A stretch of 64,000 nt of DNA from Candidatus Woesearchaeota archaeon (GCA_018653365.1 JABIAG010000001.1:448001-512000); one strand, 5' to 3'; shown: positions 10,208 to 24,955, counted from the stretch's first letter. Numbers and translations: made by a program. The notes: generated by a model from the letters alone, not told the origin.

Positions 10208-10834
10208 ATGAACGCTAAAAATTTTTATTCACCTTATTTGGCAGAAATTCTTGGATTGTTGTGTGCTGAAGGCCATCACGCAATAGCTTATTCAAGTTAT
10301 TGGAGTCTTGATCGCGGTAAACCTCGTTTTCGTAAAAACAAAAGGTCAGAAAGAATCGAGATTTATAGTAAAGATATAAAACTTTTAAACCATTTTGCGT
10401 TTCTTGTAAAAAAACAGTTTGGTTATTTTCCAAACATAACTAAAGATAATAAAATATGTATTGCTAGAAAACAGGTTATGCGTGAGATAATTTCGCAAAC
10501 AGAGCTTGGTGTATTAAATTGGACAGTTCCCGGTTTTGTTTTCACGAGTAATAAAAAAACAAAATATGCTTTTATTAGAGGTTATTTAGATGGGGATGGC
10601 ACGGTAATAAATAATGTTCGTTTTTTCTCTTGTAATAAACCAGGTTTATTAGCAGTTCAAATATTGTTATTTTCTGTGGGTTTTAAAACAACTTTACAGG
10701 GTCCCATCATTAAACCTAAAAGGAAACCTGCTTATGTTCTTCAATTAACCAGAAAACAAAAAGAAACCTTTTTAAAGATAATAAAACCGATTAGTAAATG
10801 TGCGGGTGCTGTGCATCCAGCTATGCGGGGGTAA
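10208..10834 (+). CDS. free-standing LAGLIDADG (intein DOD-type) homing endonuclease
   Basis: Two LAGLIDADG helices (LAEILGLLCAEG; FIRGYLDGDG) plus block-H-like LLAVQILLFSVGF; no intein splicing motifs; stop overlaps tRNA-Leu 5' end. Confidence 0.85.
   Translation: MNAKNFYSPYLAEILGLLCAEGHHAIAYSSYWSLDRGKPRFRKNKRSERIEIYSKDIKLLNHFAFLVKKQFGYFPNITKDNKICIARKQVMREIISQTELGVLNWTVPGFVFTSNKKTKYAFIRGYLDGDGTVINNVRFFSCNKPGLLAVQILLFSVGFKTTLQGPIIKPKRKPAYVLQLTRKQKETFLKIIKPISKCAGAVHPAMRG
10769..10776 (+). promoter_or_regulatory. probable TATA box of the tRNA-Leu transcript, inside the LAGLIDADG ORF
   Basis: AAAGAAACC-TTTTTAAA; same TTTTTAAA core as upstream of the other two tRNAs. Confidence 0.55.
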
Positions 10835-10953
10835 TTAAAATCTCTAGAGCAAAGTCTGGTTAAATGCGCAGGACTTAAGAATGCGACACTCAATACTGAG
10901 TTGAGATATCCTGTCGCTTAGTGCGTTCGTGAGTTCAAATCTCATCCCCCGCA
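10825..10953 (+). tRNA. tRNA-Leu(UAA) with two introns (8/9: 10833-10847; 37/38: 10880-10907)
   Basis: Acceptor GCGGGGG/CCCCCGC-A, anticodon arm CAGGA-CT-TAA-G..A-TCCTG, long variable arm, GTTCAAAT T-loop; removing both inserts gives a canonical archaeal tRNA-Leu. Confidence 0.92.
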
Positions 10954-24871: not shown

Positions 24872-24955
24872 GGGCTTATGGTCTAGCGGTATGACGTCGC
24901 CTCGACAATGCATTCGAAGTGGCGGAAGTCCCCGGTTCAAATCCGGGTAGGCCCA
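24872..24955 (+). tRNA. tRNA-Val(GAC) with 12-nt canonical intron (24908-24919)
   Basis: GGGCTTA/TAGGCCC-A acceptor; TCGCC-TC-GAC-A|ATGCATTCGAAG|T-GGCGG; TCGA/TCGA central splice helix; GTTCAAAT T-loop. Confidence 0.92.

Follow-up and report, generated by a model that had tools for sequence, protein, structure and literature searches.

A class-II tRNA-Leu gene with anticodon UAA, read from the sequence at positions 10825–10953 on the plus strand of a 64,000-nucleotide (nt) stretch of a Candidatus Woesearchaeota archaeon genome (GCA_018653365.1, JABIAG010000001.1:448001-512000; hereafter the window), was found to be interrupted at two positions. The first interruption, a 15-nt insert between U8 and A9, is considered, with a probability of approximately 0.85, to be a genuine archaeal bulge-helix-bulge (BHB) intron that would be removed by EndA and RtcB, and whose splice motif is predicted from comparative analysis to include part of the 5' leader. 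This reading is favored because excision of the insert restores the tRNA cloverleaf, the insertion site recurs in other genomes, the helices of the proposed motif covary, EndA and RtcB are both encoded, and no second tRNA-Leu(UAA) gene was found in the genome. The genome in question (designated G000, of which the window represents C1:448001-512000) is 1.09 Mb in size, has a GC content of 34% and is ~95% complete, and it belongs to the Woesearchaeota, which GTDB places within the Nanoarchaeota.

The interrupted tRNA-Leu(UAA) gene

When the raw gene was submitted to ARAGORN no match was returned, with the intron option either on or off, and the Rfam tRNA model matched from model position 9 only (10848–10945, 19.8 bits, below the cut-off). 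Upon deletion of 10833–10847, ARAGORN calls a clean tRNA-Leu(taa) with a normal cloverleaf and a 28-nt intron at the canonical site 37/38. The initial annotation of this locus had described a 15-nt insert between U8 and A9, a second, canonical 37/38 intron in the same gene, and a tRNA restored by excision, all of which is borne out: the sequence of 10825–10851 reads as claimed, ARAGORN places the second intron at 10880–10907, and the program reports a tRNA-Leu(taa) only once the insert has been deleted. A TATA-like box upstream of the gene, the putative tRNA promoter, would imply a leader of ~25 nt, and a comparable box is present at a comparable distance at alleles that lack the endonuclease gene discussed below. 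The features of the locus are collected in Table 1.

Table 1. Features of the interrupted tRNA-Leu(UAA) locus (positions in the window)
Feature	Position	Strand	Basis and remarks
Free-standing two-motif LAGLIDADG homing-endonuclease open reading frame, 208 aa	10208–10834	+	Pfam LAGLIDADG_3
TATA-like box, putative tRNA promoter, inside the 3' end of the endonuclease reading frame	10767–10776	+	Sequence reading
5'-leader strand of the distal outer helix	10817–10822	+	Predicted to pair with D-loop 10853–10854 and 10856–10859; minimum free energy fold, family covariation
tRNA-Leu(UAA) exon 1, nt 1–8	10825–10832	+	Sequence, ARAGORN on spliced form, family alignment
5' bulge: G7, U8 and first intron base	10831–10833	+	Predicted cut after 10832; 3-4-3 geometry
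8/9 intron, 15 nt	10833–10847	+	Sequence, ARAGORN, family alignment; equal length and site in same-genus genome G001
3' bulge: last two intron bases and A9	10846–10848	+	Predicted cut after 10847; formed in every computed fold
Exon 2, nt 9–37: D-arm, 5' half of anticodon arm, anticodon UAA	10848–10879	+	ARAGORN on spliced form; Rfam partial match
Canonical 37/38 intron, 28 nt	10880–10907	+	ARAGORN
Exon 3, nt 38–73: long variable arm, T-arm, 3' acceptor strand, A73	10908–10953	+	ARAGORN; sequence

A family of 8/9 introns and the leader helix

The 8/9 intron is a member of a larger family. Scans with a pattern in which a purine takes the place of U8 ahead of a conserved D-arm and anticodon arm yielded 52 loci in species-representative genomes and at least 80 metagenome loci, and these, together with the window and related loci recovered in other searches, give 135 listed pattern matches. 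An intron at exactly 8/9 with 3-4-3 geometry, i.e., two 3-nt bulges around a 4-base-pair (bp) helix, could be placed in 123 of the 135 Woesearchaeota matches listed, the remainder being mostly interrupted by contig ends. The 123 listed loci represent 97 distinct sequences, with an intron length of 31 nt in 54, of 32 nt in 16, and ranging from 15 to 37 nt. Among the 97 distinct sequences the 15-nt form, the shortest of the family, is limited to the window and the same-genus genome G001, and it is a shortened derivative of the ~31-nt intron that is widespread in Woesearchaeota.

The 97 distinct sequences were aligned and their pairing was compared with that in 500 column shuffles and with that obtained when the partner strands were slid. 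Paired cells amount to 91.2%, compared to 81.5% upon shuffling (a level of 91.2% being reached by none of the 500 shuffles) and 27–48% with slid partners, while both sides of a pair have changed in 265 cells against 95 expected, and the observed covariation is again reached in 0 of 500 shuffles. All ten pairs of the inner helix covary, and the central helix alternates between G-U, A-U and G-C. The pair between nt -1 and 12, which was not imposed by the splice-site finder, is formed in all 95 of 95 distinct rows, being U-A in this genome and C-G in G001. Both bulges are likewise conserved, the 5' triplet being GUA or GUU in 86, and the 3' triplet AGA in 88, of the 97 family sequences.

Beyond the pairs adjoining the central helix, a distal helix links a leader segment of the CCAG-purine-C type to the D-loop (alignment columns 7–13 with 80–86), with 92.5% of cells paired and with one position clearly alternating between G-C and A-U. 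Uninterrupted complementarity of 6 bp or more between leader and D-loop is present in 87% of intron-bearing alleles (6% with shuffled leaders) versus 12% of intron-less alleles fetched by a matching pattern (11% with shuffled leaders). The leader element thus appears, from this comparison, to be part of the splicing motif of the intron, and, since the helix is specific to intron-bearing alleles, splicing is inferred to take place on a leader-containing precursor, ahead of RNase P. The order given in the initial annotation, with splicing ahead of cloverleaf folding, CCA addition and U8 modification, is a prediction, and the leader pairing bears on the RNase P step. A separate candidate role for the leader was rejected: in the minimum free energy (MFE) fold of the whole precursor, leader positions 10800–10806, a heptamer similar to the 5' acceptor strand, pair with the 3' acceptor strand (10946–10953), forming a 'decoy acceptor' that would free nt 1–7 for the BHB motif. 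This pairing is not family-wide, with a small excess over shuffles, one perfect case (locus L064), and near-duplicates in G001 and a few loci.

With respect to the distribution of introns in this gene, most tRNA-Leu(UAA) genes among 40 genomes of the order are uninterrupted at 8/9, and many carry introns in the D-loop or T-loop. In other families of the order, the orthologous tRNA-Leu(UAA) genes possess introns at up to three sites per gene, located in the D-loop (L013, L015, L017 and L027), the T-loop (L007, L011, L015, L019 and L027) or the T-stem (L023). The differing non-canonical sites indicate that the tRNA-Leu(UAA) gene has been invaded repeatedly at different positions.

The splice motif, the splicing enzymes and alternative readings

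All pairings of the proposed motif can be drawn in the copy carried by the window. The proximal outer helix consists of U-1:A12, G1:C11 and C2:G10 (leader base 10824, G1 and C2 with 10849–10851), the central 4-bp helix of G3–G6 (10827–10830) with 10842–10845, where two of the four pairs are G-U, and the inner stem of two A-U pairs (10834–35 with 10840–41) closing a 4-nt loop. The outer helix accordingly comprises 3 bp plus the distal leader/D-loop helix, and the inner helix has two A-U pairs here versus ~10 bp in a typical member. The local fold has a z-score of -2.5 relative to chance, and the 3' bulge, the central helix and the outer helix are present in all computed folds, which does not hold for the 5' bulge. 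The initial annotation had termed the motif a strict BHB. This description stands as regards the 3-4-3 geometry and the listed pairings, each of which can be drawn, but not as regards stability, the inner helix being limited to two A-U pairs and the drawn structure not being the favored fold. Since the drawn BHB scores worse than an MFE fold without a 5' bulge, 'strict' is, judged from the fold models, a term that fits the spacing and not a stable structure.

The enzymes expected to act on such a motif are both encoded by the genome. EndA is specified by one gene (177 aa, N and C domains, at ~G000:C1:14503-15036), and no second (beta) subunit was detected in the genome. The protein aligns end to end with the alpha4 enzyme of M. 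jannaschii (1A79, E 2.4e-31) and with the alpha subunit of N. equitans (3IEY_A, E 5.6e-37), including the region of the Y/H/K triad. An intact RtcB is encoded at C1:408850-410136. The canonical 37/38 intron of the same gene (motif at 10869–10913) has a 4-bp helix with 3 nt in its 3' bulge, whereas its 5' bulge measures 10 nt, and it does not form a strict BHB. The weak inner helix of the 8/9 intron and this 10-nt 5' bulge together suggest, as far as the modelled structures go, that this EndA may tolerate loose 5' sites.

Several points weigh against the intron reading and were considered together. The MFE fold of this copy (-12.9 kcal/mol) pairs G7 and U8 with intron bases, thereby extending the central helix and leaving no 5' bulge, while the drawn BHB is assigned -7.5 kcal/mol, or -10.4 kcal/mol without the 2-bp inner stem; with its 2-bp inner helix and a 5' bulge that is unformed in the MFE fold, the substrate is nearer a bulge-helix-loop. 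Furthermore, the run of G residues at nt 3–7 permits a register-shifted central helix, and in a typical 31-nt member it is nt 4–7 that are paired in this way in the MFE fold. The 100% pairing of the central helix and of 1:11 and 2:10 is partly by construction, because these pairs were demanded by the splice-site finder. Concerning the enzyme, the EndA of this genome is without the Lys/Arg-rich insert that precedes the catalytic His in the N. equitans alpha subunit, and alpha4 enzymes are said to need a strict motif (PMC3239211). Finally, none of the listed runs containing this DNA is recorded as RNA, a point that also counts toward the pseudogene alternative considered below.

The fold energies bear most directly on an alternative in which the intron is real and spliced, but in which EndA would recognise a relaxed bulge-helix-loop (hBH/BHL) in the 15-nt copy in place of a strict hBHBh' motif. 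In that case the 5' cut would fall within a loop of 11 nt, and only the central helix and 3' bulge would fix its position. This alternative, which we regard as unlikely, draws support from the energies given above, and from the 10-nt 5' bulge of the 37/38 intron, which suggests that EndA may handle loose 5' sites routinely. It also agrees with the report that alpha4 enzymes in several DPANN lineages accompany many disrupted tRNA genes (Kaneta et al. 2018, PMC5829648). On the other hand, three intron positions differ between G000 and G001, yet both A-U pairs of the inner stem are kept in each, the usual intron of the family has a strong inner helix of ~10 bp, and the strict motif is the form reported as an alpha4 requirement (PMC3239211).

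It is far less probable that the gene is a pseudogene, or that the insert is neutral and never removed, with UUA being read by another tRNA. Standard finders do reject the gene, and a second copy could lie in the part of the genome outside the ~95% that is covered. Against this, compensatory changes across 97 sequences preserve the insert together with the bases that it pairs with, and the exons yield a flawless cloverleaf once the insert is removed. TTA is, moreover, the most common Leu codon, representing 4.04% of codons in the long open reading frames of the genome. Searches of the ~95% complete genome with ARAGORN, with BLAST using the gene as query, and with a BHB-aware splice-and-rescan procedure detected no second tRNA-Leu(UAA), intact or otherwise, and recovered Leu(tag) and Leu(gag); a loose anticodon-arm pattern search of the genome returned the known locus only and was otherwise uninformative. 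The sole other 'Leu taa' call, an ARAGORN alternative at C2:77776-77925, was rejected, as its D-arm is of class I, its anticodon stem contains a G.A mismatch and it lacks a variable arm. The gene described here is the only recognisable gene of the genome for a UAA-anticodon tRNA-Leu. The possibility of an assembly or sequencing artefact, to which the origin of the window in a metagenome-derived assembly might point and for which no positive evidence was found, is negligible, as contigs of three marine metagenome runs (X7, X8 and X9) not flagged as the source of the assembly span the insert with 0 differences, indicating that the insert is real DNA, and as a 15-nt insert occupies the same site in G001 and in a metagenome contig. 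The initial annotation's interpretation of the insert as an EndA-type intron at 8/9 is supported by the restored cloverleaf, the 123 listed loci, the covariation in every helix, the presence of EndA and RtcB, and the lack of another Leu(UAA) gene in the searches above; as regards its concern over read support, the matching contigs speak for the insert. In the marine metagenomes X6–X8, contigs of other organisms were also observed whose Leu(UAA) genes either lack an 8/9 insertion or carry a 3' tail like that of longer 8/9 introns (junctions 10847–10848 and 10879–10880), so that intron-bearing and intron-less alleles share one community.

The same searches provide an overview of the other tRNA genes of G000. 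ARAGORN and Rfam recovered ~30 tRNA genes; with these and the rescan, Met, Tyr and Asn tRNA genes were not recovered, Val, Pro, Asp and Gln were recovered via the BHB-aware rescan only (for example Pro(tgg) with a T-loop intron at C1:271427-271456), and several further isoacceptors were missing. Many more disrupted tRNA genes are probably hidden in this genome. Within the window, a further tRNA at 24872–24955 (Rfam, 50.5 bits) carries an insertion of ~18 nt in the anticodon arm; ARAGORN reports an Arg(tcg) gene here and places an 11-nt intron at position 32, possibly a non-canonical anticodon-loop site.

Returning to the EndA/RtcB-spliced intron, we infer the following order of events, in which cleavage itself and the sequence of processing steps are predicted from the motif. 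The transcript would begin with a leader of ~25 nt, and in the precursor the 5' acceptor strand would not be paired with its 3' counterpart. Instead, nt 3–6 and the 3' end of the intron would form the central 4-bp helix, nt -1, 1 and 2 would pair with D-stem nt 12, 11 and 10, and the CCAG-type leader segment would pair with CUGG of the D-loop, thereby setting U8|A and G|A9 in the two 3-nt bulges. The single alpha4-like EndA would cut both bulges and RtcB would join U8 to A9, whereupon the spliced RNA would refold to the cloverleaf and RNase P would remove the leader.

Non-canonical archaeal tRNA introns have reportedly been studied by Marck and Grosjean in 2003, Sugahara in 2008 and Fujishima in 2011. 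Non-canonical BHB introns in tRNA genes are well known from Thermoproteales, N. equitans and ARMAN-2 (PMC4090602, PMC4033280), with known sites including 3/4 and the acceptor-stem region (PMC4090602, PMC12397907), and disrupted tRNA genes have already been noted in DPANN of the Woesearchaeota type (PMC5829648). The sites listed in review (3/4, 20/21, 22/23, 25/26, 29/30, 30/31, 45/46, 53/54, 56/57 and 59/60; PMC4090602) do not include 8/9, nor was this site mentioned in the full texts searched, in a comparison that did not extend to the primary catalogues, and the reviews' lists alone do not permit a claim that 8/9 is an unreported site. The intron described here resembles the known ones in being short, in having two 3-nt bulges around a 4-bp helix, in being independent of the anticodon loop, in coexisting with a canonical intron, in its predicted removal by EndA and RtcB, and in being missed by standard finders; it differs in its site and in its host, a Woesearchaeote with a single alpha4-like EndA in place of an (alpha-beta)2 or epsilon2 enzyme. 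As for that enzyme, the end-to-end alignment likens it to the M. jannaschii alpha4 and N. equitans alpha proteins, whereas the Lys/Arg-rich insert of the latter is missing and no beta subunit was found in the genome.

The 3/4 introns of Thermoproteales and the split tRNAs of N. equitans and Caldivirga provide the closest parallel for the leader, as there, too, the 5' leader supplies part of a motif that is in competition with the acceptor stem. Indeed, tRNAscan-SE 2.0 adds a 60-nt flank to its candidates because the splice motif may lie partly outside the mature tRNA (PMC8450103). In contrast to those systems, the partner bases of the leader in the 8/9 family lie in the D-stem and D-loop (nt 12 and ~15–20), and the helix covaries and is confined to intron-bearing alleles; a leader/D-loop helix of this type was not found described in the literature searched.

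The upstream endonuclease gene and its possible role in the spread of the intron

Directly upstream of the tRNA gene lies the LAGLIDADG homing-endonuclease open reading frame (ORF) of Table 1, which is uninterrupted and matches Pfam LAGLIDADG_3 over its second half (E 3.2e-12) and weakly over its first. Its last codons are at the same time the tRNA promoter, the leader and tRNA nt 1–7, while its stop codon consists of U8 and the first two intron bases. The stop is located at U8 in nine of ~21 loci and is not conserved, and no functional meaning is therefore drawn from its overlap with the splice site. Homologues with 50–62% identity occupy the same upstream position at other intron-bearing alleles, with five loci retaining fragments only. 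When the count is confined to distinct loci for which 750 nt or more of upstream sequence is available, 23 of 87 intron-bearing alleles, versus none of 105 intron-less alleles, have the endonuclease immediately upstream (Fisher p 2e-9, computed over related genomes that are not independent samples, which weighs against a homing interpretation of this count).

Comparison within the genus is consistent with a recent change at this locus. The relative closest to this genome, G002, whose EndA is 96% identical, has neither the endonuclease nor the intron, while G001 (EndA 84% identical) has both the derived 15-nt intron and an endonuclease with 62% identity and an in-frame stop (TAG), indicating that endonuclease and intron were gained or lost together, and recently. 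A further point against a homing interpretation is the lack of conserved synteny at the locus, even within the genus: the genes on its flanks differ between G000, G001 and G002, and for this reason neither the donor nor the direction of transfer can be reconstructed. A proposal that the ancestral promoter had been retained upstream of the endonuclease, based on a 15-nt resemblance to G002, was dropped because these flanks are not syntenic.

Further LAGLIDADG ORFs were observed in the genome. A 325-aa ORF (G000:C2:78189-79271) runs through a TATA-like box and 15 nt into tRNA-Val(tac), a gene with a 25-nt D-loop intron (79172–79196) and probably one further intron, in an architecture as at the Leu locus. 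A 283-aa ORF (G000:C2:126606-127665) shares 21 nt with the 3' end of the opposite-strand tRNA-Arg(tct), in which a 27-nt intron follows ~nt 23, and lies 136 nt upstream of tRNA-Cys. Additional free-standing ORFs are located at C2:81058-81840, C3:42536-43330 and C1:751114-751746. Elsewhere in the family, two loci from different sources (L052:3629-5005 and L135, the latter on the reverse strand) share 1377 nt at 100% identity starting 105 nt upstream of tRNA G1 and are unrelated beyond; one has a full endonuclease and the other its last ~35 codons only, which represents either a presence/absence polymorphism of the endonuclease or a chimeric contig.

By analogy with collaborative homing, it is tentatively proposed, at a little under even odds, that the endonuclease, the promoter and leader, exon 1 and the 8/9 mini-intron constitute one mobile cassette. 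The LAGLIDADG enzyme would cut an intron-less tRNA-Leu(UAA) gene at or near 8/9, double-strand-break repair would copy in the endonuclease, the leader helix needed for splicing and the intron, and the intron would then shield the gene from recutting. The analogy is suggested by an endonuclease that is situated outside the intron, that is never beside an uninterrupted target, that is patchily distributed and whose copies are decaying. The main rival account, in our view somewhat doubtful, is vertical hitch-hiking, whereby the endonuclease inserted once upstream of a gene that already bore the intron and was inherited or lost thereafter with no role in the spread of the intron. The endonuclease is indeed missing at 64 of the 87 intron-bearing alleles, and the surviving copies have diverged to 50–62% identity, with an in-frame stop in G001 and fragments only at several loci. 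Such an account sits less well with the endonuclease being found at none of the 105 intron-less alleles, and with G002 being without both elements when the more distant G001 carries both, including the derived 15-nt form. Furthermore, endonuclease-positive loci are spread across several intron/acceptor subtypes that include endonuclease-negative members, and two further LAGLIDADG ORFs of this genome, those at the Val and Arg genes, abut or overlap intron-bearing tRNA genes.

Archaeal rRNA BHB introns are known to encode LAGLIDADG endonucleases such as I-DmoI and I-PorI, a combination of BHB intron and LAGLIDADG enzyme in a stable-RNA gene of an archaeon that the Leu locus shares. In those introns, however, the ORF lies inside the intron, whereas here it lies upstream of the gene and extends across the promoter and leader to within exon 1. 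Collaborative homing has been described in cyanophage S-PM2, whose psbA gene contains an intron and has the free-standing endonuclease F-CphI next to it (Zeng, Bonocora and Shub 2009; described in PMC6083498), and trans homing for T4 mobE and I-TevIII (PMC2790892). The present locus is similar to these in that the endonuclease is outside an ORF-less intron, adjoins the interrupted gene, is never found at an uninterrupted allele and has a patchy distribution. It differs in that a mini-intron spliced by proteins in a tRNA gene takes the place of a group I intron in a phage protein gene, in that the endonuclease is a LAGLIDADG protein, and in that cutting of the intron-less allele is here a prediction. 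A literature search, which did not reach the primary intron catalogues, uncovered no account of free-standing endonucleases located next to tRNA genes in archaea.

For annotation, these results mean that standard finders give no tRNA for the most common Leu codon of this genome, and that a Leu(UAA) gene is likewise hidden in 52 or more species-level genomes of Woesearchaeota, as well as on many metagenome contigs, accounting for one of the tRNAs that such finders miss in these DPANN. For RNA processing, a motif assembled from leader, acceptor strand and D-arm implies that splicing should precede RNase P action and cloverleaf folding, a task that would fall to an alpha4-type enzyme reputed to be strict. 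How non-canonical tRNA introns spread is regarded as unexplained in review (PMC4090602). If the cassette proposal is true, the Leu locus would represent an archaeal, protein-spliced version of collaborative homing and would provide a concrete mechanism for that spread, with the same logic extending to the tRNA-Val locus of this genome. With the link between endonuclease and intron, and with a closest relative that has neither, the spread of non-canonical tRNA introns becomes a testable question.

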